DNA of 64,000 nt from Patescibacteria group bacterium (GTDB taxonomy: Bacteria; Patescibacteriota; Microgenomatia; UBA1400; Chisholmbacteraceae), in the NCBI GenBank assembly GCA_022564195.1, contig JADFLW010000007.1, positions 3,667 to 67,666 on the forward strand, given 5' to 3'. The translations under genes were made by a program, and so were the position numbers. The notes under the pieces were generated by a model. The model worked only from the letters and a program-made list of their open reading frames with translations, made no database searches and was not told where the DNA came from. The stretch's first letter is position 1. Each line of letters begins with the position of its first letter. Positions 1,260-60,506 of this stretch are shown here, piece by piece.

Positions 1260-1667
1260 TTATCGGCGCTTGACAAATTTCGTTTTTACTGGAAGCTTGT
1301 GGCCAGCAATTCGGAAGGCCTCCCTCGCCACTTCCTCGTTTACCCCTGCGAGCTCGAATAGTACACGCCCAGGCTTTACTGTCACGACGTACTCATCGAT
1401 ATCTCCTTTTCCCGAGCCCATTTTGGAACCAGCGGGTTTGCGGGTTATTGGCTTATCTGGAAAAATTCGAATCCATGTCTTTCCTGTACGCTTCGTTTTG
1501 TGGGCAATCGCACGGCGGGCAGCTTCAATTTGGCGAGCGGTCACCCATCCACGACCGAGGCTTTTGATGCCGTATTCCCCAAAATCGACACTGGTGCCTC
1601 TCGATGATTTTCCTCTCATCGAGCCCCGGAAATCCTTGCGGTACTTTCGTTTCTTCGGTTGTAGCAT
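1260..1667 (-). CDS. rplP: 50S ribosomal protein L16
   Basis: 135 aa starting [15 protein letters not shown], with [16 protein letters not shown]; classic L16. Confidence 0.93.
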
Positions 1668-1673
1668 ATTTTT

Positions 1674-1708
1674 TAATGTTTAATGTTTGATGTTCTATGT
1701 TTGATGTT
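1674..1708. repeat. five tandem heptamers (taatgtt taatgtt tgatgtt ctatgtt tgatgtt) directly upstream of the rplP start codon
   Basis: Same AAACATN (coding-strand) heptamer family as upstream of tpiA. No SD is apparent. Confidence 0.65.
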
Positions 1709-1751
1709 TAATTCTTCAATCTTTAATCTTGAATTTTACATGTTCCATGGC

Positions 1752-3150: not shown

Positions 3151-3987
3151 TTATCTGGCTCTTCGGTCTTTTACAATTCGTTTATCCGAATACTTCTTTA
3201 CTTTCCTGGTCTTTTTTCCTAACGTCGGTTTTCCCCAAGGACTCTTGGGAGATGGCATCCCTATTCCCGAACGGCCCTCTCCACCACCGTGTGGGTGCGC
3301 TGCAGGATGCATGGCAACACCACGTACCGCAGGGCGGAAACCCATGAGACGGCGGCGTCCAGCTTTTCCGAGCTTTATTGTTTTCCACTCAATATTTCCG
3401 ACTTGGCCGATGGTCGCGAAACACCTGATATCTATGAGTCGATGTTCCTTGCTGGGCAGTCTTACCGTGGCGTATTTTCCTTCTTTGGATTGTACTGTCG
3501 CCGCCGTGCCAGCCCCGCGGACGAGCTGACCACCCTTTCCTGGTCTTAATTCTATGTTATGGATGGGTGTTCCAACCGGAATCTTGGCCAGTGGGAGGGC
3601 ATTTCCAACTTTAATCTCGGCATCTTCGGCCGCGATTACCGTGTCGCCTAGCTTAAGGTTTAAAGGGGCAAGCACGTAGCGCTTTTCTCCATCGGTGTAG
3701 TATACAAGAGCAATATTCGCGCGGCGATTGGGATCGTACTCTATTGCCATTACTTTTCCAGGAATCCCGTGTTTATCTCGTTTAAAATCGATGCGGCGAA
3801 GGAGCCTCTTATGCCCGCCACCCCTATGGCGAACGGTGATTTTTCCAGATACGTTTCTTCCACCAGACTTTTTGACCGTACTCTTGATTAGCGTCTTCTC
3901 AGGTTTTGCCTTGGTTATCTCGGCAAAATCAAGATCGCTTCGATGTCTTACTCCAGGACTGGTTGGTCTTCTCTTGCGTACTGCCAT
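3151..3987 (-). CDS. rplB: 50S ribosomal protein L2
   Basis: 278 aa with GGGHKRLLR and HPHGGGEGR motifs. Confidence 0.96.
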
Positions 3988-5811: not shown

Positions 5812-5987
5812 GGTTTCTTATTCCTTATCCTATGATTCGTTCGCAACAAAAAACGATCCGGAGGGATCGCTTCTTACGTCTACCCAATCCGTCTTCTCTT
5901 GCTCTCTTATTTCGATTTGCGTCGAGTTCCCAACATTACCTCCTCTTTGCAGAAGATCGGGAGTAGACTTATGCTATCGATGGCAGT

Positions 5988-7594: not shown

Positions 7595-9724
7595 TCATTT
7601 CTTTTTCTTGGGAGATTTCTGCTCTTTTTCTTTCTCTTCCTTGCCTTTGTTGATCAGGGTCTCGGTAACGTTTGCTGGCACTTCCCCATAATGGCTCGGC
7701 TCCATGTAATGGGATGCCCGCCCCTGGGTCATGCTTCTGAGTATTGTAGCATATCTTGAGAGTTCTGCCAAGGGAACCAGGGCAGTAATGATGCGGATTT
7801 TCCCCCTCTGCGCGGTTCCTAAGATTTGCCCTCTTTTGCTTGAAAGGTCTCCAATCACATCACCCATGAACTCTTCAGGGGCGGTGACTTCCAGCTTCAT
7901 GATCGGTTCAAGGAGCACCGGATCTGCTTGTTTGACCGCCGCCTGGAGTGCTGCTGAACCGGCGATCTTGAAGGCGATTTCTGAGGAGTCTACTTCGTGG
8001 TAGGTTCCGTCGTAGACCGCAACAAGCATATCCACGAGCGGGTGCCCCGCAAGCACACCATTCTCCATCGCTTCTTTGACCCCTTTTTCCACGGCTGGGA
8101 TGTATTCTCTGGGGATTGCACCGCCGGCGACCTCGTTTTTGAATTCGAACCCTTCGCCGCGTGTCTTAGGCTCGATTCGAAGGAAGCAGTGACCATATTG
8201 GCCACGACCTCCGGTTTGCCGGATGTATTTTCCTTCGGCTTTGGCCACCCGTTTAATTGTTTCTTTGTAGGCGACTTGGGGGGTTCCGGTGTTTGCTGCC
8301 ACGCGAAATTCTCGCTTCATCCTGTCGACGATAATTTCAAGGTGAAGCTCCCCCATACCAGAAATGAGTGTCTGGCCAGTATCAGAGTTTACTTTTATTT
8401 TGAATGTTGGGTCTTCTTCAGCAAGGCGCGACAGCGCCACACCCATCCGTTCTTGGTCAAGCCTTGTCTTCGGCTCTATCGCCAATGAAATCACGGGCTC
8501 AGTGAATTCTATTCCTTCAAACAGGATAGGGTGAGTTTCGTCAGTCAATGTGTCTCCCGTTGTTGTATTTTTTGCCCCGACTACCGCAACAATCTCTCCC
8601 GCTTCAGCGTCTGCGATTTCTTCTCTTTGGTTGGCATGCATCAGAAGCAACCTTCCGACTCGTTGTTTTTCCCGTTTGGCCACGTTGGTGATATAGGAGC
8701 CAGACTTCAGCCTTCCTGAGTAAATCCGGATGTAGGTGAGCCTTCCAACATGGGGGTCAGTTTGCACCTTAAATGCCAAGGCTGCGAACGGCCCGTCGGG
8801 ATCAGGTGTTCTTACCTCCTCTTTACCGGTTTTGGGATTCACGCCTTTTGCTGGCTCAACATCGAGTGGACTTGGCAAGTAGTCAATGATCGCATCGAGA
8901 AGCAGCTGGACTCCTTTGTTTCGAAGGGATGAGCCACAAAACACTGGAACCAAATCATTGCGGATGGTTGCGGCTCTCAACGCTTGTTTCAGCAGTATTA
9001 CTGATGGCTCTTCGTCTTTGAGGAACTTTTCTAAAAGATGCTCATCGGTTTCGGATATTTTTTCGATGAGCGCACTGCGCACTTTTTCCACCCTGTCTTT
9101 CAAATCATCCGGCACTTCACTTATCCTGTACTTGGCTCCTGTCTCGTCTCCTTCCCAAATAATTGCTTTGCGTTCTAAAACGAGAACCACACCCTTAAAG
9201 CTGGATTCCACCCCGATTGGCACGACCATCACTGCGGTGCTTGCCCCCAATTTTTCTTCTATTTCTTTTACTGTGTTCTGGAAATCTGCCCCGAGTTTAT
9301 CCATTTTATTGGCGAAGCAAATTCGAGGAACTCTGTATTTGTCTGCCTGGCGCCAGACGGTTTCCGATTGGGATTGAACGCCTTCCTCCGCATCGAGAAT
9401 CGTCACTCCGCCATCAAGAACACGCAACGAGCGCTCGACCTCAGCAGTGAAATCGACGTGCCCTGGGGTGTCAATGATGTTGATTCTGTGTGAACCAGTG
9501 AGTAGCGTGCCTTCTAATTGAGGGTTCCAAAACGTGGTTGTTGCTGCTGAGACTATCGTGATTCCGCGTTCCTTTTCCTGTTCCATCCAGTCCATTTGGG
9601 TTGTGCCTTCATCGATGTCCCCAAGCTTGTATGTCTTTCCCGTGTAATAGAGGATCCGCTCTGTGGTTGTGGTTTTTCCCGCATCAATGTGGGCAATGAT
9701 CCCAATGTTACGGATCTTGTCCAT
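7595..9724 (-). CDS. fusA: elongation factor G
   Basis: The likely true start is the ATG at 9724 ([20 protein letters not shown]). The 781-aa ORF in the track adds a 72-aa upstream extension. The protein has a Lys-rich C-terminal tail ([15 protein letters not shown]). Confidence 0.95.
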
Positions 9725-9845
9725 GGGTGTCTTTCGTTGGGTACTCTGCTTTTGTGTTGCCACGGTCCTTCCTTTCAGGTTTTCGTACAAGAAACGGACT
9801 TCCTTAACGTTGTCGTATGGGAAGTCCGCCACTTTGTATCTGCCT

Positions 9846-10325
9846 TTACCACCGGAAATGGGCAAACGCGCGATTGGCTTCTGCCATCTTGTGCGAGGTG
9901 ATCTTTCTTTGGAATGCCAATCCTTCGCCATTGGCCGCATCCATCAATTCTTTTGCCAACTTTTCGGCAAACGTGTGGTACTCGCTGTTCGGACGGTTTC
10001 TTGCCCCTCGAACTAACCAGCGGATTGCAAGTGATAACGCTCTTCGTCCCTTGATTGGCGTTGGGACCTGGTAGGACGCACCCCCCACTCTGCGGGAACG
10101 AACTTCCATTTGGGGTGTGACGTTGCGCACTGCGGTTTCGAAAAGCTCGATCGGATCTTTCCCCTGTTTTTCCCTGATGATGTCGAATGCAGAGTAGACA
10201 TTGCCTTGAGCCACAGTTTTCTTCCCATGCTTCATCACAGTACTTACTAGCATTGCTACTATCGTGCTCCCATACACGGGATCTGGCTCTACTTCTCTAG
10301 GAGTTATTCTTCCTGTTCTCGGCAT
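9846..10325 (-). CDS. rpsG: 30S ribosomal protein S7
   Basis: 159 aa ([18 protein letters not shown]...) of the S7 family. Confidence 0.95.
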
Positions 10326-28458: not shown

Positions 28459-28486
28459 GAGAATTGAGAATTAAGATGTGAGATTT
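28459..28486. repeat. tandem heptamers (gagaatt gagaatt aagatgt gagattt) immediately upstream of the ytxH-like start codon
   Basis: Four consecutive 7-bp units of consensus NAGAWTT on the plus strand (AAWTCTN on the coding strand), ending 6 nt from the ATG. Confidence 0.6.
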
Positions 28487-33556: not shown

Positions 33557-33568
33557 GATTTACTATAT

Positions 33569-33603
33569 CAGAATTAAGATATGAGAATTGAGATTTTAGA
33601 ATT
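33569..33603. repeat. tandem heptamers (cagaatt aagatat gagaatt gagattt tagaatt) upstream of the rnj start codon
   Basis: Five 7-bp units of the NAGAWTT family. A TATAGT lies 6 nt before the ATG on the coding strand. Confidence 0.6.
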
Positions 33604-34276
33604 AATCTTGACGATTCTCGATAAGCGTAAGTTGCTGTGTCTTCTTTGATTCCTGTGTTGTTTCTTTATGTTCTTCTTCCGGTTCTGCGGTTATACTTTG
33701 ATTATTGACATTGCTCATTACTTTCTTGAGTTTGGCAAAATCTTCTTCAAACATGCGCTTCACGTGTCCGTTCCGGAGTGCAGCAGCGGGGTGATACATT
33801 GGAAATACTACGATTTTTTTCCCTTCCCAATCAACCCAACGCGCTAGGCCATGAATTTGACTTATATAGGTATTTGGAATGAATTTTCTCAAACTAAAGC
33901 GGCCAAGAGTAACGATGATCTTGGGATCGATGATGTGTATTTCTTGATCGAGATACGGCTTGTACGCCTCTATTTCCTCTGGAACTGGATCTCTGTTTTG
34001 GGGTGGCCGTACCTTCAGGATATTTGAAATCCAAACTTCACTTCTTTTTACTCCGATCTTACTAAGACTTTTTGTCAACAGCTTTCCGGCTACTCCGACA
34101 AATGGCCTTCTCTGAACATGCTCATGGAATCCTGCTGCCTCGCCGATGAACATAAGCTTTGCATCGGGGTTGCCTTCGGGAGGGACAATATCTGAAGCTT
34201 TTTTTGCAAGCGGCAGATTCTTCGCCTTTTTCTCCAGTTCTTTTATGAGTCTATCTAGCTCTTTTTTTTTGCTCAT
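33602..34276 (-). CDS. uracil-DNA glycosylase, family 4
   Basis: FIGEAAGFHEHVQRRPFVGVAGKLL matches the family 4 UDG motif (GEAPG...PFVG.AG.LL). The acidic C-terminal tail is typical. Confidence 0.8.
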   Translation of the reverse strand: MSKKKELDRLIKELEKKAKNLPLAKKASDIVPPEGNPDAKLMFIGEAAGFHEHVQRRPFVGVAGKLLTKSLSKIGVKRSEVWISNILKVRPPQNRDPVPEEIEAYKPYLDQEIHIIDPKIIVTLGRFSLRKFIPNTYISQIHGLARWVDWEGKKIVVFPMYHPAAALRNGHVKRMFEEDFAKLKKVMSNVNNQSITAEPEEEHKETTQESKKTQQLTLIENRQD

Positions 34277-42041: not shown

Positions 42042-42080
42042 TAAATTAGCGTATAGCGTTTAGGGTTTCGTTTAATTAGT

Positions 42081-42103
42081 AAAAAAGGTGGACCACGCCA
42101 CCT
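42081..42103 (-). terminator. rho-independent terminator downstream of dnaJ (stem aGGTGG/CCACCt, then T6 on the minus strand)
   Basis: Plus 42087-42091 ggtgg and 42098-42102 ccacc, with an A6 run at 42081-42086; on the minus strand this reads as a hairpin followed by UUUUUU. Confidence 0.5.
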
Positions 42104-42169
42104 CCACAAATCCTAAAACCAGGGTATAGTTTATCACGATTTCCTCTTAGGGTCAATTGAACAGGAGGT

Positions 42170-43060: not shown

Positions 43061-43112
43061 ATGTTAGGGTGTAGGGTGAAGAAGCGGGTTAGCTAGTGGA
43101 CATCGCACTTTC

Positions 43113-46866: not shown

Positions 46867-48681
46867 TTATACCTTCATCAGCTTCGAAAATGTTTCCGGT
46901 GGAATGGTGACGCGGCCGAGGCGGGCGAGCTTTTTCTTGCCTTTTTTTTGTTTGGCAAGAAGCTTCATTCTTCTGGTGCGATCGCCGCCGTAGAGCTTGG
47001 CAGTGACATCTTTGCGGGCTGCTGGTTTGGTTTCGCGGGCGATGATCTTTCCGCCGATTGCCGCTTGGATGGGAACGGCAAAGAGCTGCCTCGGAAGCAA
47101 TTCCTTTACTCTTGTTACCATCTCTCTTCCTACCGCTTGGGCATTTTGGCGCACCACGATCCGAGCTAGCGGCTCGACTTCTTCATGATTGACTAAGACT
47201 ACCAGTTTCACTGCATCAACTGGTTTGGGTTCGATGTATCTGTAATCTAAAGAGGCAAATCCTTGGCTTACGGATTTTAGCTCATCGACAAATCCACTGA
47301 TGAGCTCGGACAGCGGGAGGTGATAGACAATTTGTGCCTGTTCACCAATATATTTGGTGTCTCTGTACGTTCCTCTTGACTCTTGCAGCAACTGCATGAG
47401 CGCACCTATATGCTCGCGGGGTGTGAGGATTGTTACCTCGGTCATGGGTTCGCGGATCCTCAAGAGTTGCGAAGGATTCGGGAGCTCGGATGGAGTTTGA
47501 ATGTTTCTGGTTTTCCCATCTTTGGTTTCTATCGTGTATTCCACTGTCGGTTTGGTGACGATAGCGTTGATACCGTGCTCCCTACTCAGACGCTCTCTAG
47601 TAATTTCGCTGTGAAAGAGACCCAAGAAACCCAGTCGTAGTCCACTCCCCAGCGCTGGAGCAGAGATTGATTTTGAAGATAGAGAAGCGTCGGTGAGCAT
47701 CAGTTTTTCAACAGCTTCCTTCAATTTATTAAAGTCAGAATCCTGATCTGGATAGAAATCGGCGTATACCACGGGCTTTGGCATTCTAAATCCTGGCAAT
47801 GGAACCGGAGGGGTTTTTGCCTTTTGTGCATTGAGTATTGTTAGCGTGTCACCAACTTGAAACGCACGAATATTTTTTAATCCTGTTGCTACAAATCCAA
47901 CTTCCCCCGCCTTTAACTGCTTCAGTGGAGTACGCTTCGGTGAAAAGACGCCGATTTCTTTTGTTTGGAAGTTCTTTTTTCCCATCATGAGGTGGAGCTT
48001 TTGTCCGCCTTCCAAGCGGCCATCGATAACCCTGACGAAGGCAATGACTCCTAGATGTACGTCGTATATTGAGTTGAATATCAAGGCTCGCAGTGGTCTG
48101 TCCTCTGCGCCTTTTGGATGTGGAAGGTCTTGTATTATTCGCTTGAGAAGCCTATCGACTCCTTCCCCTGTTTTCGCCGAGGTGAGTGAGATTTCTTCCT
48201 TTTTGAACCCAAACACCTCATGCAGCTCGCGTCGCGTCTCATCGACTCTTGCCGATCTCAGATCTACTTTATTTATTACCGGTAACAACGTTAATCCTAG
48301 ATCCGCTGCTTTCGTCGCATGCGCCATCGTTTGGGCTTGTATCCCTTGAGCGGCATCGACGAGCAGCACCGCGCCTTCGCAGGCTGCCAATGAACGAGAT
48401 ACTTCATAGGAGAAATCGATATGGCCGGGAGTATCGATCAGATTCAGCGTATAGCGTATATCGTATAGCGTATAGCGCATGGTTACGGGGGCAAGTTTGA
48501 TGGTGATGCCACGTTCTTTTTCGATCGGATTGCTATCGAGGATGCGCTCACCTTTTTCTCTTTGAGAAATGGTTCCTGTGTGTTTTAGAAGCTGATCGGT
48601 TAACGTCGTCTTGCCGTGATCAATGTGGGCGATGATTGAAAAGTTGCGAATACCCTTCGTCGTTAAGCCTTCCCGTTTCAT
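46867..48681 (-). CDS. lepA: elongation factor 4 (LepA)
   Basis: NFSIIAHIDHGKTTL and DTPGH in the G domain, with a LepA-specific C-terminal domain; 604 aa. Confidence 0.95.
   Translation of the reverse strand: MKREGLTTKGIRNFSIIAHIDHGKTTLTDQLLKHTGTISQREKGERILDSNPIEKERGITIKLAPVTMRYTLYDIRYTLNLIDTPGHIDFSYEVSRSLAACEGAVLLVDAAQGIQAQTMAHATKAADLGLTLLPVINKVDLRSARVDETRRELHEVFGFKKEEISLTSAKTGEGVDRLLKRIIQDLPHPKGAEDRPLRALIFNSIYDVHLGVIAFVRVIDGRLEGGQKLHLMMGKKNFQTKEIGVFSPKRTPLKQLKAGEVGFVATGLKNIRAFQVGDTLTILNAQKAKTPPVPLPGFRMPKPVVYADFYPDQDSDFNKLKEAVEKLMLTDASLSSKSISAPALGSGLRLGFLGLFHSEITRERLSREHGINAIVTKPTVEYTIETKDGKTRNIQTPSELPNPSQLLRIREPMTEVTILTPREHIGALMQLLQESRGTYRDTKYIGEQAQIVYHLPLSELISGFVDELKSVSQGFASLDYRYIEPKPVDAVKLVVLVNHEEVEPLARIVVRQNAQAVGREMVTRVKELLPRQLFAVPIQAAIGGKIIARETKPAARKDVTAKLYGGDRTRRMKLLAKQKKGKKKLARLGRVTIPPETFSKLMKV
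48446..48480. repeat. five tandem 7-bp units (agcgtat agcgtat atcgtat agcgtat agcgcat) inside the lepA coding sequence
   Basis: The units are read directly from the sequence. They encode MRYTLYDIRYTL in the G-domain loop preceding the DTPGH motif. Confidence 0.7.
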
Positions 48682-56406: not shown

Positions 56407-58554
56407 TTGACCGCTTTGCATCTTTCATCTTCCTCTATACAATATGTGGGCATTCGTATGCATGAGCTGGTGAATACATTTTCCTGGTGGGCTGTTCTTT
56501 CCGGTCTTGGGATTTTGGCCTTTCCTATCACCTATTGGCTGTTTGGTCGATTTTGGGATCGTGGCTGGGCATTTGCAAAGATCTTAGGGCTTGGGCTGCT
56601 CACGTACTGGGTGTGGATTGTGGGAAGTTTGCGAATTCTTGCATTCGAAACATTCACCCTCTGGATTGGTATTGTTCTTATTGGATATCTTTCCTATCTC
56701 GTTTGGTCCAAGCATCAAGAATCTTTATGGAATTTTGTTCAGGATCATTGGCGTTTGATCGTGTTTGAGGAGTTCCTTTTTGGTATCGGTCTCTTGTTCT
56801 GGTCTTGGGTGCGGGCTCATCAGCCGGACATCAATGGCCTTGAAAAATTCATGGATTTCGGATTTGTCAATTCTCTTTTACGTACACGCTTCTTTCCTCC
56901 GCCCGATATGTGGCTAGCGGGGGAGACCATCAACTATTACTACTTCGGACATCTAGTAGTTGGGGTTGTTACCAAACTCTCAGGGATTTCCTCGGCTGTG
57001 ACGTATAACCTTATGATCGCCACTCTTCTGGGACTTGCTTTTACCGGGGCTTTTTCCTTGGGCGGAACATTGGCTCAGCACGTCATTCCGACTTTGACAC
57101 GGAAGCGGCGATTCAGCTTCATGATTCTGGCTGGTTTGACTTCTGGATTGGTGTTCACGTTCGCTGGCAATTTACACACTGTTGTCACCGTCATCTCCAA
57201 GGGAGCTGATTCATACTGGTACCCCGATGCCACTCGCTACATTCCCTACACCATCCACGAGTTCCCGCTCTACAGCTTCGTTGTTTCGGATTTGCATGGC
57301 CATGTTAACAATATTCCCTTTGTCCTTTTGATGCTGGCACTTTTGCTTAGCTTTCTTCTGGAACATGGAAATCGGTGGCGTTTTTCTTTCCGTTCGCCAT
57401 CGGTCTATTGGCGCTTGATTGCCTTGGGTCTGACGTTTGGGATTCTTTACATGACCAACGCCATGGACGCGCCAATTTATCTTTTTCTTGTTGGTATGAG
57501 CTTTCTTGTTTCGATAATTGGCAAGCGTCCATTAAAAAAAGCTGTTTTGGCCTCCGGGCTCGCTTTTGGGATCATTGTGTTCTCTGCTTTCGTCCTTTCT
57601 CTTCCGTTTCATCTTTCTTTTACCCCTTTCACTCAAGGTGTTGCTTTCGTGGAGGCTCGTTCTTCCATCCTGAAGCTTTTGGTTCTGTGGGGTTTCTTTT
57701 TATTTGTCGGTTTGGTGTTTGTTCTTCTTGTTCTCCAACAACGTTTCCAGCGCCATTCTCGCAAGCCTTTTCTCAATGTCTTGCTTCGTCGGTTCATGCT
57801 TGCTGTCTTTGCAACCGCAGTTGTCTTGGTCGTCATTCCAGAATTTGTTTACTTCAAAGACATCTATATTGCTGAATTTCATCGGGCGAATACGATGTTC
57901 AAATTGGTGTATCAGTCTTTCGTTCTGATGTCTTTGATGACAGGGCCAGTGTTTGTTGTGTTGCTCTGGCGTTTTACCACTTCAAGTGGTCGGCTTTTGC
58001 GCTTTGGGCTTTTGGCTTTGGTTTTCGCATTTATTGTTGGCTTGGGGAGTGTGTTGATGTACCCGTATTTTGCGGTGCACTCCTACTACAATCGCCTGCA
58101 AACGCTTCAGGGTCTCGATGGTCTATCTTGGATGGCGCGTCGCTATCCTGATGATTATGCTGCTATTTCTTGGCTGCGTGATGAGGTTTCCGGTCAACCG
58201 GTTATCGCGGAAGCCGTGGGCGAGAGTTATACCGATTTTGCGCGGGTTTCGGCGAATACCGGATTACCCACGGTTCTCGGGTGGCGGGTGCACGAATGGT
58301 TGTGGAGAGGCAGCTTTGATGAGCCGGGCCTTCGCACGGGTGAGGTTGAGAGGCTTTATACCACAGCGGATCTCCACGATGCCTGTGCCATTATTGAAAA
58401 GTATAGGATTGCGTATGTTTTCGTTGGTGCTTTGGAGCGCCAACAATACTCTAGACTCAATGAAGACAAGTTTAGCCGGATTGGAAACGAAGTGTTCTCT
58501 CAAGGAGATACACGGATTTATAGGATGCGCACTCCTTGTGGTGTCTCTTCCTAG
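56407..58554 (+). CDS. DUF2298 (Chlor_Arch_YYY) domain membrane protein, GT-C-like
   Basis: 715 aa, highly hydrophobic, with the hallmark INYYYFGH motif and a C-terminal soluble domain. Confidence 0.6.
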   Translation: MTALHLSSSSIQYVGIRMHELVNTFSWWAVLSGLGILAFPITYWLFGRFWDRGWAFAKILGLGLLTYWVWIVGSLRILAFETFTLWIGIVLIGYLSYLVWSKHQESLWNFVQDHWRLIVFEEFLFGIGLLFWSWVRAHQPDINGLEKFMDFGFVNSLLRTRFFPPPDMWLAGETINYYYFGHLVVGVVTKLSGISSAVTYNLMIATLLGLAFTGAFSLGGTLAQHVIPTLTRKRRFSFMILAGLTSGLVFTFAGNLHTVVTVISKGADSYWYPDATRYIPYTIHEFPLYSFVVSDLHGHVNNIPFVLLMLALLLSFLLEHGNRWRFSFRSPSVYWRLIALGLTFGILYMTNAMDAPIYLFLVGMSFLVSIIGKRPLKKAVLASGLAFGIIVFSAFVLSLPFHLSFTPFTQGVAFVEARSSILKLLVLWGFFLFVGLVFVLLVLQQRFQRHSRKPFLNVLLRRFMLAVFATAVVLVVIPEFVYFKDIYIAEFHRANTMFKLVYQSFVLMSLMTGPVFVVLLWRFTTSSGRLLRFGLLALVFAFIVGLGSVLMYPYFAVHSYYNRLQTLQGLDGLSWMARRYPDDYAAISWLRDEVSGQPVIAEAVGESYTDFARVSANTGLPTVLGWRVHEWLWRGSFDEPGLRTGEVERLYTTADLHDACAIIEKYRIAYVFVGALERQQYSRLNEDKFSRIGNEVFSQGDTRIYRMRTPCGVSS

Positions 58555-59642
58555 TTCGCGTTGCTGGTCATGTTTTCGTAGAATAATGAGTCCACGTAGC
58601 TGTGGACCTCGTCCCAACTCCCGCCTCTACCAATGAGCACCCATTGTCCATCATATTCTGCCGGTGGCGGATTGACGAGTAGGCCCTCTTCTCCAGTTTC
58701 CTGGTCTTGCTCCTTAAGAATACCGTATCGCAGGTTTTCTCTCCGGGGTTGTATGGCAAGTTTGGCAAGGCTTACGTATTCGGCTTCACCAAGATCCGTC
58801 CTTACTGATCCTGTGTATGTTTGGACTAACTCTTTGATTTTTGTCGGAGAGAGTATGGTTTCCAAACTCAGTAGCTTGTTTTTGAATGCCGCGAGTACTT
58901 GCTGTTGGCGTTGAGCGCGGGCAAAGTCTGTTCCCTGAGGTCCCTTAGCGTTGCGGGATCGAACGTACTTTAAGGCTCGCTCTCCACTCATGTTTTGTGA
59001 ACCGCTATCGAAGCGCAGATGTTCGTAGCGAAGCTCCTCGGGCTCTGCGTCTTCCATCCCGGGGATGGGATATTTGTAATCGTCAAAGGTTTCGGGAACA
59101 TTGATTTTTATCCCTCCAACGAGATCGATGGCGTGTTTGAAGCCGTCAAAATCGATGCTGACCGCGTAATGGACGGGTTGGCCAATGATCTCTTCCACCG
59201 CAGCTTTAGCAAGCACCAGTCCCCCGCCTTCTTGTCTCTGCTCGCCGTAGTAGTAGGTCGCGTTTATCTTGGTTTTCAATGAATTGATCCAGATATCCCT
59301 CGGGATTGAGAGAACCAGGCTGTCGGTTGAGGCTAAATCGACTGAGACGACGATGATGCTATCGGTCAACTCTGCTCCTTTGTGATCAACACCGCCCATT
59401 CCCAACAGTACGATATTCGTTCTTGAGCGGGTTGAGCGGAGCACACCTTCCGGATTCTTCACTAGAGAAAAGACAGTTGCCGGTCCGCGGGCAAGCTTTA
59501 CTACCATGGTCAATGCGGGTCGGATCGCCGCATAGACAGCAACGATCACCGCTGCCAGTGTGGTTGTTACGATCAGCGTGCGTACCGCGGTTCGGTGTCT
59601 CGTTAAGCGTCGTTTCAGCTTTCCTACCCAGTACTTTCTCAT
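58551..59642 (-). CDS. LCP family (LytR-CpsA-Psr) glycopolymer phosphotransferase
   Basis: TM anchor followed by NIVLLGMGGVD...SIIVVSVD...LSIPRD...KINATYYYG...VSIDFDGFKHAIDLVGGIKINV, the LCP core. The likely ATG at 59642 forms an ATGA overlap with the tpiA stop. Confidence 0.85.
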   Translation of the reverse strand: MRKYWVGKLKRRLTRHRTAVRTLIVTTTLAAVIVAVYAAIRPALTMVVKLARGPATVFSLVKNPEGVLRSTRSRTNIVLLGMGGVDHKGAELTDSIIVVSVDLASTDSLVLSIPRDIWINSLKTKINATYYYGEQRQEGGGLVLAKAAVEEIIGQPVHYAVSIDFDGFKHAIDLVGGIKINVPETFDDYKYPIPGMEDAEPEELRYEHLRFDSGSQNMSGERALKYVRSRNAKGPQGTDFARAQRQQQVLAAFKNKLLSLETILSPTKIKELVQTYTGSVRTDLGEAEYVSLAKLAIQPRRENLRYGILKEQDQETGEEGLLVNPPPAEYDGQWVLIGRGGSWDEVHSYVDSLFYENMTSNAN

Positions 59643-60361
59643 GGTGTTTCTGTGGTCTTTATTATCGTCTGGTTGGCCATTCTTATCATCTTCAGCCATT
59701 CTGCGGCGTTGAGACTTGCGCTTCCCGGAAGAACGCCGTCAATGAGCGGTTCTTCTAAAAATATGGCAATGTTGTGGCTTTTCACACTGCCTCCGTAGAT
59801 CACGGTTGGGGCCTCCGTCTCTTTTTTTATTTTGACTATAGCTTCTTTCACTTCATCAATTGGCGCTGGCTCTCCTTTCCCGATGGGGCCGATTTGCTTG
59901 CTGATTGCCTCGGGGGGCTCGTACATGAGTATTGACTTATTGATCATCCCCTCATCCAGTGCATTCAGCTGTCGTCTCCAGTTGTCTGCGTCTACGGCAA
60001 TGATGGGGGTAATGCCGTTATCAAGTGCTTGAACGGCTTTCTGCGCTACTTTAATCTCGGTTTCTTGGAAATAGCGGCGGCGTTCCGAATGCCCCAAAAT
60101 TGTGTATTCTACCAAACTCCTCATCATGCGGGCGGTTACTTGGCCGGTGTAGGCTCCATCACCATAGGGTGAAAGATCCTGGCAGCCGAGAGTGAGTTCT
60201 GACATCTGGTCTCTGAAAAGCGTGAGGTGGATGAAGGATGGGCAGAGCACCACTTTCAATCGTTTATCAATTGTGGGTTTCTCCTTCTTCACCTCCTCAA
60301 TCCAGGAACGGGCCTCTTTTAGGGTTTTGTTTGCCTTCCAGTTGCCGATGAGGTATTTCAT
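59639..60361 (-). CDS. tpiA: triosephosphate isomerase
   Basis: GNWKAN, GHSERR and YEPPEAI motifs are present. The likely ATG is at 60361; the track begins at a TTG at 60370. Confidence 0.9.
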   Translation of the reverse strand: MKYLIGNWKANKTLKEARSWIEEVKKEKPTIDKRLKVVLCPSFIHLTLFRDQMSELTLGCQDLSPYGDGAYTGQVTARMMRSLVEYTILGHSERRRYFQETEIKVAQKAVQALDNGITPIIAVDADNWRRQLNALDEGMINKSILMYEPPEAISKQIGPIGKGEPAPIDEVKEAIVKIKKETEAPTVIYGGSVKSHNIAIFLEEPLIDGVLPGSASLNAAEWLKMIRMANQTIIKTTETP

Positions 60362-60368
60362 AAAAGAC

Positions 60369-60396
60369 AATGTTTAATGTTCAATGTTTAATGTTT
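60369..60396. repeat. four tandem heptamers (aatgttt aatgttc aatgttt aatgttt) directly upstream of the tpiA start codon
   Basis: Read from the sequence. The coding strand carries AAACATT repeats ending ~8 nt before the ATG. Confidence 0.65.
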
Positions 60397-60506
60397 GATG
60401 ACTAATAACTCATTCTGAATCTCTCCATCTTTATCTCTGTCTCTTTCTTAGCTTGCGTGATACGATTCTACCATGGCCTCTGGAGTCCTTAAAGATCTTG
60501 TAGAAT

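Follow-up and report, generated by a model that had tools for sequence, protein, structure and literature searches.

What, if anything, do tandem heptamers do when they stand directly in front of the start codons of unrelated housekeeping genes? The question is raised by a 64,000-nucleotide (nt) stretch of contig JADFLW010000007.1 from a Patescibacteria group bacterium (positions 3,667 to 67,666; the whole stretch is here called the window), in which an original prediction made from the letters alone had placed AAACATN heptamers immediately upstream of rplP and tpiA. Heptamer repeats are a genome-wide class in this species, and the rplP and tpiA arrays are two of about ten. The arrays are, with high confidence, a lineage-specific population of heptanucleotide simple sequence repeats (SSRs) of the same kind as the short tandemly repeated repetitive (STRR) sequences of cyanobacteria and the TAACTGA repeats of Beggiatoaceae; for this window, they are a variant of a known phenomenon and not a new mechanism. 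That they also serve as, or are tolerated as, single-stranded 30S landing sites independent of a Shine-Dalgarno (SD) sequence is a proposition for which we see even chances.

The first array lies within the S10 operon, between rpsC and rplP, and consists of the following features:

1675-1709, minus strand: five AAACATN units (AAACATC, AAACATA, GAACATC, AAACATT, AAACATT) in the rpsC-rplP intercistronic spacer, from pattern counts and Tandem Repeats Finder (TRF; period 7)
1668-1674, minus strand: a degenerate sixth unit (AAAAAAT), in register, touching the rplP ATG (1667-1665) and occupying the position that an SD would have
1710-1744, minus strand: five degenerate period-7 units (GAACATG, TAAAATT, CAAGATT, AAAGATT, GAAGAAT), from TRF, with a lag-7 run at 1713-1737
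1260-1667, minus strand: rplP (ribosomal protein L16, 135 aa), the gene served by this array

The spacer is 84 nt long (1668-1751; the rpsC stop codon is at 1752-1754), and the degenerate units fill its rpsC side, such that TRF reports period 7 across 1672-1744 with 10.3 copies. The second array is in the leader of tpiA:

60369-60396, minus strand: four units (AAACATT, AAACATT, GAACATT, AAACATT) in the tpiA 5' leader
60362-60368, minus strand: a GTCTTTT spacer from the last unit to the ATG (60361-60359), which holds the heptamer register and contains no SD
60397-60424, minus strand: degenerate period-7 units (GAGAGAT, TCAGAAT, GAGTTAT, TAGTCAT) upstream of the clean array
59639-60361, minus strand: tpiA (240 aa), with its ATG at 60361
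60465-60473, minus strand: TGGTAGAAT, an extended -10-like box within a block conserved in a sister species (TGTTAGAAT in contig L131), which a strict two-hexamer scan missed

Here TRF reports period 7 at 60369-60400 with 4.6 copies. At both genes, the last clean unit is separated from the ATG by 7 nt, i.e. by one unit length. Nearly all genes of the window are on the minus strand, as are both AAACATN arrays.

Both arrays, with five units at rplP and four at tpiA, are real, the earlier coordinates having been about 1 nt off. The predicted identities of the two genes also stand, as Pfam annotation of identical genes on public contigs assigns them to L16 and TIM, respectively. The pattern AACATNAAACAT, allowing up to one mismatch, has 8 matches in the window where 1.8 are expected, and 7 of these 8 are within the rplP and tpiA arrays; similarly, a three-unit AAACATN pattern has 11 matches where 0.9 are expected. 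In both searches, the observed counts were reached by no shuffle. An assembly artefact was ruled out, since independent assemblies (ENA and Logan) of at least five samples contain identical arrays. In a separate observation on gene calling, the longest open reading frame (ORF) of tpiA begins at a TTG at 60370, in the spacer adjacent to the repeat (243 aa), while the ATG at 60361 (240 aa) agrees with homologues and with public gene calls. For annotation more generally, stop-free and G-poor arrays cause longest-ORF calls to overrun true starts, of which this TTG is an example.

The arrays had been presented as a two-gene AAACATN family, and this part of the prediction does not survive a listing of the 40 nt upstream of every ORF in the window. 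At least four unit types precede unrelated housekeeping genes, and at least five further start-proximal arrays in the window, plus two just outside it, had been missed. The latter two are on L123, a contig of this species that is 99.5% identical to the window and reaches past window position 1; overall, about 80 kb of the genome of this species was sampled. The additional arrays, including one that is in frame within a coding sequence, are:

28459-28486, minus strand: AAATCTC, ACATCTT, AATTCTC, AATTCTC, 5 nt before the ATG (28453) of a hypothetical gene of 119 aa
29601-29621, minus strand: TAATTCT, TAAATCT, CAATTCT, 6 nt before the ATG (29594) of an HTH_25-domain gene
33569-33603, minus strand: AATTCTA, AAATCTC, AATTCTC, ATATCTT, AATTCTG, 12 nt before the RNase J ATG (33556), with a TRF period of 14 at 33565-33605
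42048-42068, minus strand: AAACCCT, AAACGCT, ATACGCT, 6 nt before the nusA ATG (42041), from TRF
43066-43079, minus strand: two units, TCACCCT and ACACCCT, 5 nt before the dnaJ ATG (43060)
48446-48477, minus strand: 4.6 copies of ATACGCT, a unit of the nusA leader, in frame in lepA (46867-48681) and encoding RYTLYDIRYTL
L123:13071-13110, beyond the window: TAATTCT, TAATTCT, TAAATCT, TGAATCT, TAAATCT, 6 nt before the ATG of rpsM (S13)
L123:14588-14617, beyond the window: five TCATNAN units before rpoA, followed by an ordinary AAGGAG SD

Thus, 7 of the 57 window genes have start-proximal arrays that end 5-12 nt before the ATG, in addition to rpsM and rpoA, and the unit families of the species are AAACATN, AATTCTN/AAATCTN, A[AT]ACGCT, and ACACCCT. 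When lags of 4-15 were examined across the window, non-trivial repeat runs were found only at lags 7 and 14, and four of the six runs are in the non-coding 9%. Two observations concern the coding runs. The lepA array takes the place of a variable loop that immediately precedes the conserved DTPGH motif and that reads FYKAKDGNTYKL or DYKASDGETYQL in solved LepA structures. A second coding-region run of period 7 (57996-58021) is inside a plus-strand DUF2298 gene (56407-58554); read on the minus strand it is CCAAAGC, CAAAAGC, CCAAAGC, GCAAA, and it is kept in the other same-species assemblies L126-L128.

Start-proximal heptamers have precedents. The TAACTGA heptamers of marine Beggiatoaceae occur in 2-6 copies, mostly forward, a few nt from start codons and over the ribosome-binding site; an SD is present in only about 10% of these regions, their phylogenetic distribution is sporadic, and sites are found inside ribosomal protein operons (L3, S4, S1, fusA), at unrelated housekeeping genes and, in a few copies, inside ORFs (MacGregor 2015, PMC4679880). 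The present arrays share with them the forward orientation, the copy number of 2-6, the position a few nt before the start, the general absence of an SD, the location in ribosomal protein operon interiors and before unrelated housekeeping genes, the occasional in-ORF copies, and the sporadic distribution. In contrast, the units here are AAACATN, AATTCTN, ACGCTAT, and ACACCCT, with several families per genome and not one dominant unit, and the host is a small-genome bacterium of the candidate phyla radiation (CPR), of which about 80 kb is compared, and not a giant gammaproteobacterium. Heptamers of the cyanobacterial STRR type were reportedly described by Mazel et al. in 1990. In Nostoc, heptamer repeats are found genome-wide within 30 nt of start codons, and translational effects have been speculated (bioRxiv 10.1101/2022.06.06.494920). 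As in these cyanobacteria, several tandem families are dispersed intergenically in one genome, many are within 30 nt of or overlap starts, and a translational role is suspected; the cyanobacterial repeats have other units and come from another phylum, STRR arrays are frequently longer, and Nostoc has some reporter evidence for effects at promoters. The present arrays are not cyanobacterial STRRs in the strict sense, as the units differ and the host is a Microgenomates/Chisholmbacteria-like CPR bacterium. Its rpoC is unsplit, which likewise shows that the host is not a cyanobacterium.

Membership in the wider class of heptanucleotide tandem SSRs (LSSR5-11/STRR-like) is indicated by the presence of at least three head-to-tail copies, an excess of period 7, and dispersed, mostly intergenic units. 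In the survey of Mrazek, Guo & Shah (2007), as it is summarized in PMC4679880, heptanucleotides are the most abundant of the 5-11-nt repeats (LSSR5-11) in many prokaryotes and are ascribed to slippage and expansion. According to that summary, the two sets of repeats have in common that heptanucleotides are the commonest class, are sporadic across lineages, and are read as products of slippage or expansion and not of selection. The survey as summarized covers mainly large-genome, free-living bacteria and reports no start proximity, whereas the arrays here are short (2-6 units), start-proximal, and in a reduced CPR genome. Within the literature that could be searched, nothing was found on heptamer leader repeats, SD usage, or translation initiation in CPR/Patescibacteria, and heptamers are not mentioned in a 2025 survey of short tandem repeats.

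If the arrays act on DNA, then they could be promoters, UP elements, iteron arrays for a transcription factor, or phase-variable contingency loci in which promoter spacing or leader length depends on the number of units. The arrays are A/T-rich and upstream of genes, and there are precedents for such action: heptamer repeats at the Nostoc recO promoter modulate the action of NtcA and LexA (bioRxiv 10.1101/2022.06.06.494920), and 7-bp repeats upstream of Haemophilus influenzae hmw1A/hmw2A control hmw1A expression, as outlined in PMC8262952 and PMC12721329. Like the present arrays, the hmw repeats, as described in those outlines, are tandem heptamers between promoter and start codon, within the 5' untranslated region (UTR), but their number of units changes both from strain to strain and inside a strain, which tunes the expression of an adhesin, while no change in number was seen here and the genes are housekeeping genes and not surface or virulence genes. 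Scans near the rplP array for sigma-70-like promoters and intrinsic terminators found none, as did strict two-hexamer sigma-70 and terminator scans at the tpiA array, with the caveat that the sigma-70 consensus may not fit CPR bacteria. The rplP array is inside a conserved operon, without a promoter- or terminator-like site, and the suggestion that it belongs to leader or intercistronic RNA and not to a promoter is thus borne out. At tpiA, the block conserved with the sister species (TTTAAGGAnnCCAGAGGCCATGnTAGAATCGTATCA) includes the promoter-like TGnTAGAAT at 60473-60465. Since this block sits upstream of the array, the array probably lies in the 5' UTR, and here too the proposal of a leader over a promoter holds. 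The distance from the block to the tpiA ATG is about 100 nt and period-7-rich in this species, compared to about 40 nt and repeat-free in the sister species.

The nusA array is likewise placed in a leader by what precedes it. Its upstream region (42081-42156, minus strand) has a promoter-like TTGACC-17-TAAACT with a preceding TG (42156-42128), then a GC-rich hairpin at about 42084-42105 and a U-tract, followed by the heptamer array and the ATG; the strict terminator scan made no call here. By analogy, the hairpin and U-tract look like a leader terminator or attenuator, recalling the autoregulation of NusA in other bacteria.

Strain comparisons bear on the contingency-locus version of DNA-level action. 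Four assemblies (the window, L001, L002, and L123; 99.5-100% identity, 0 gaps) do not differ at the rplP array, and L123 differs from the window over 6.6 kb by 34 substitutions without gaps. At tpiA, the unit number is equal in six assemblies from at least four samples, and the sole change within the array is a C>T in the first unit. The unit number is therefore constant in all of these assemblies, despite the substitutions and a 6-nt indel elsewhere, and the earlier suggestion of a slipped-strand-prone leader finds no support in them. Phase variation was rejected on this basis and is largely refuted at the strain level. The indel is part of a separate strain polymorphism upstream of the tpiA array (about 60425-60440, minus strand), where L126, L127, and L129 have the 6-nt indel and substitutions in an AGAGGT/AGAGAT repeat. 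Taken with the operon position of rplP and the upstream block at tpiA, this makes DNA-level action very improbable.

If the arrays were conserved sites specific to rplP and tpiA, then they should be present in orthologous leaders, and their absence there had been named beforehand as something that would refute the original prediction. In sister species, neither the rplP nor the tpiA leader carries such an array. In a species with L16 86% and TpiA 78% identical (L125 and L131), the rpsC-rplP spacer is 38 nt and array-free (L125), and the tpiA leader is short and array-free (L131); 38 kb of DNA from this species has no lag-7 runs. In L124, a 773-kb genome with L16 80% identical, the rpsC-rplP spacer is 3 nt. 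A conserved gene-specific regulatory site at rplP or tpiA was rejected accordingly, and these sequence comparisons show that the arrays are evolutionarily young. The closest named relative by L16 is Candidatus Chisholmbacteria (Microgenomates, CPR; 78% identity), and TpiA relatives are in Chisholmbacteria, Collierbacteria, and Patescibacteria.

Young arrays that are absent from orthologous leaders, and hence dispensable, are what is expected if they are neutral simple-sequence DNA, produced by mutational bias (polymerase slippage over a footprint near 7 nt, perhaps together with weak mismatch repair) and without a role in expression. Their placement would follow from the genome, which is 92% coding, so that the harmless sites are the few intergenic nt, nearly always beside a start codon. 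The tolerated in-frame array in lepA is consistent with this, as are the SD-less, array-free leaders of the same clade and the tendency of heptanucleotides, the commonest 5-11-nt class in many prokaryotes, to expand (Mrazek 2007, as summarized in PMC4679880). How far such repeats recur was examined with 80 rplP loci from related CPR bacteria with L16 identities of 59-78%, amounting to 626 kb. Lag-7 runs number 46 in these loci, compared to 4-15 for lags 4, 5, 6, 8, 10, and 11; lags 9 and 12 are multiples of the triplet, with mostly coding runs, and were set apart from the comparison. In these relatives, the median rpsC-rplP spacer measures 8.5 nt, and 19 of 78 loci have one of more than 25 nt. 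Several of these longer spacers contain heptamer arrays of other units, such as AACTAAT (L179), CTAACGA (L187), TACTAAG (L201), and others (L180, L184, and L202), and this filling of the same spacer by different units in different lineages also favors neutrality.

Where the arrays lie, and on which strand they are G-poor, is less easily reconciled with neutral DNA. In the relatives and the window together, 26 of 54 arrays end at most 20 nt before the ATG of an ORF of at least 60 codons, whereas 200 trials of random placement gave 6.7 and never more than 13, so that start proximity is above that of random placement. The first-ATG test was used for this purpose in place of greedy gene calls, which absorbed many arrays into extended ORFs. 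At least 32 of the 54 arrays are non-coding, in 7.5% of the sequence, and the true count is higher because stop-free arrays inflate longest-ORF calls. On the sense strand, 19 of the 26 start-proximal arrays have more C than G, 5 have more G than C, and 2 have equal numbers; this 19:5 bias toward G-poor arrays is the reverse of what the coding strand shows, where G is in excess of C. Additionally, the register is kept right up to the ATG, and L16, S13, and NusA, which are essential and highly expressed, can lose both coupling and SD only if initiation works on array leaders. Finally, independent slippage does not lead one to expect units that are shared at unlinked loci. On the other side, about one third of the intergenic arrays in relatives are nearer to the upstream stop than to the next start, many of them being distal halves of spacers that are filled from stop to start.

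A scan for four tandem AACATNN units, with one genome per species, found at least 120 loci in many phyla; the matches listed include Verrucomicrobiota, Bacteroidota, Planctomycetota, Acidobacteriota, Lentisphaerota, Patescibacteria, Cyanobacteria, and others. Among the matches listed from other phyla, the arrays often adjoin arrays of related NNAACNN units, and only 15 of 99 are start-adjacent in the sense orientation and 3 in the antisense, compared to 7.2 at random positions, a modest enrichment. A cruder longest-ORF version of the sense/antisense test is affected by the reverse complement ATGTT, which makes false ATGs, and by high-GC loci, which give shadow ORFs. With so many phyla and such modest start adjacency, AACATNN is thus a widespread simple-sequence unit and no signal peculiar to CPR bacteria, which again favors neutral origin. 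Example loci among the matches listed are L023:40-127, L020:5751-5831, L066:853-941, and L064. In several Acidobacteriota, a short GC-rich core has an AACATNN array on one side and the reverse complement of that array on the other, a layout that could form a long hairpin and that is unlike the leader arrays of CPR bacteria. All considered, an entirely neutral origin is a rather unlikely account of the arrays.

The alternative that we prefer, the landing-site model, concerns the properties of the leaders as RNA. None of the 7 array-bearing leaders in the window has an SD, while about 15 of the other 50 window genes do (at least 4-5 nt of AAGGAGG). For rplP and tpiA, this agrees with the earlier statement that both are SD-less. 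Their last 30 nt contain only 1-2 G; array leaders in general have 1-3, compared to a typical 5-9. Predicted folding from -40 to +20 has a mean of -2.1 kcal/mol in array leaders and -7.6 kcal/mol in the other 50 genes (Mann-Whitney p = 1e-4), and the unpaired probability from -20 to +10 is 0.77 and 0.58, respectively (Mann-Whitney p ~1e-4). When the whole rpsC-rplP spacer is folded to its minimum free energy, the AAACAU units stay fully unpaired. The rplP and tpiA leaders do not fold better than their own shuffles, an Rfam scan of the whole window gave zero matches at the gathering threshold, and a tRNA scan of the window found none; the window also lacks an rRNA gene.

These properties would fit the following series of events. 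Heptamer repeats would expand in short transcribed spacers immediately 5' of start codons; we infer that the arrays are transcribed and that they arise by slippage. On the mRNA, the result would be a G-poor, A/C/U-rich, structure-free leader that is in register up to the ATG and occupies the SD position, and because it does so, the downstream cistron would be initiated without SD pairing, by direct loading of the 30S subunit on single-stranded RNA (a standby or S1-type route). At rplP, the 84-nt spacer would stand in for the tight translational coupling of relatives. In a minimum version, arrays would only be tolerated in the orientation and composition that preserve landing sites. SD-independent enhancers that are A/U- or CA-rich, such as S1-dependent leaders, the omega sequence of tobacco mosaic virus, and the epsilon sequence of T7 gene 10, are functionally defined and can replace an SD. 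Like the arrays, they are G-poor, single-stranded, partly repetitive, and directly 5' of the start, and the low structure predicted by folding and the lack of an SD apply here as well; they differ in being defined by functional assays and not by sequence, and in being without a strict 7-nt tandem layout. The landing-site model appears to be the most economical because it accounts together for transcribed spacers, the SD position, leaders that are mostly G-poor and unstructured, essential genes, and the replacement of coupling at rplP.

Several points weigh against this model. SD-less leaders without arrays are common in the window and in sister species; therefore, SD-independent initiation can do without arrays, which may be neutral filler. 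A G-poor composition leads almost inevitably to low predicted structure. The rpoA array of the same species is followed by an ordinary SD, and five start-proximal arrays in relatives are G-rich. Since nearly all sampled genes are on one strand, the replication strand could account for part of the orientation bias. The functional step of the model is one that we infer from nucleotide sequence. Additionally, units and multi-unit stretches of 11-18 nt recur at unlinked leaders, which local slippage with a filter on composition fails to explain, and such recurrence points either to copying between loci or to selection for particular sequences.

This recurrence is found both within the species and among relatives. 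The rplP and tpiA leaders share CATCAAACATTAAACATT, and four leaders (28453, 29594, 33556, and rpsM) share AAATCTCAATTCT or TAATTCTTAAATCT. Among 66 leaders, 7 pairs share an 11-mer, of which 5 are pairs of array leaders. Similarly, two unlinked leaders at L164:4040-4095 and L164:10825-10880 both have (CACTTTT)n followed by CACTTGACGACCGAAGGGAGGA, a 22-nt tail that contains an SD, and the unlinked leaders at L208:8478-8505 and L208:16225-16250 both have CATTACTTCTTACTCATTAT. The sharing of array and flank in L164 and L208 suggests, at the sequence level, leader cassettes that were copied between loci.

Identical units and 11-18-nt stretches at unlinked leaders (rplP/tpiA, the 28453/29594/33556/rpsM group, L164, and L208) would also be expected if the arrays were a lattice to which a sequence-specific protein binds, one that covers about 7 nt and is of the cold-shock-domain, S1, or KH type. 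This corresponds to the protein-binding array of the original prediction. One domain would bind per unit, and the arrays would define a post-transcriptional regulon of housekeeping genes. Cold-shock domains bind single strands of roughly heptanucleotide length. The small number of unit families per genome and the register of arrays with the ATG are consistent with such a lattice, and S1, cold-shock proteins (Csp), and CsrA were all proposed as binders, with a translational role, for TAACTGA (MacGregor 2015, PMC4679880). However, at least four unrelated unit families are present in one genome and other units in each lineage, which would call for many binders or a single, very degenerate one; arrays are not conserved at orthologous genes; no covariation or structure was seen; and no candidate binder was found among the window genes, a search of the small ORFs of the window for Csp, S1, or CsrA having found none. 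A binding lattice is thus improbable. A combination of both ideas, in which the arrays, instead of being passive products of slippage or generic unstructured leaders, are a small set of dispersed leader cassettes that spread between unlinked genes and are recognized by an RNA-binding factor of this lineage that covers 7 nt, is likewise doubtful, and we would give it little weight.

Two further observations concern translation genes of the window that are outside the heptamer arrays. The rpsJ-rplC (S10-L3) spacer at 5812-5987 (minus strand) is unusually long, at 176 nt, and has a hairpin with a T-tract, GCGATCCCTCCGGATCGTTTTTTG, at 5846-5870; this hairpin is conserved in L123 and in L125, a sister species, and may be an attenuator inside the S10 operon. 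Additionally, the EF-G ORF at 7595-9940 (minus strand) encodes 781 aa, compared to an expected length of about 700 aa, and in the related genome L124, gene calls divide the corresponding region into ORFs of 256 and 333 aa that lie about 350 nt apart; fusA may carry an insertion or interruption in this clade.

Start-proximal heptamers were already reported in Beggiatoaceae and Nostoc, and their occurrence in CPR bacteria argues that they are a recurrent feature of bacterial leaders and no peculiarity of two groups. Here, several unit families are present, they precede essential genes (L16, S13, NusA, and RNase J), and they recur in one operon spacer across lineages. The arrays offer a compact test case for SD-less ribosome initiation and for the spread of short repeats between unlinked sites. 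If the cassette reading were true, then cassette and factor together would be an unrecognized and widespread form of SD-independent translational control in CPR bacteria, and this mode would extend, with other units, to Beggiatoaceae, cyanobacteria, and lineages of the Planctomycetes-Verrucomicrobia-Chlamydiae (PVC) group and Bacteroidota.

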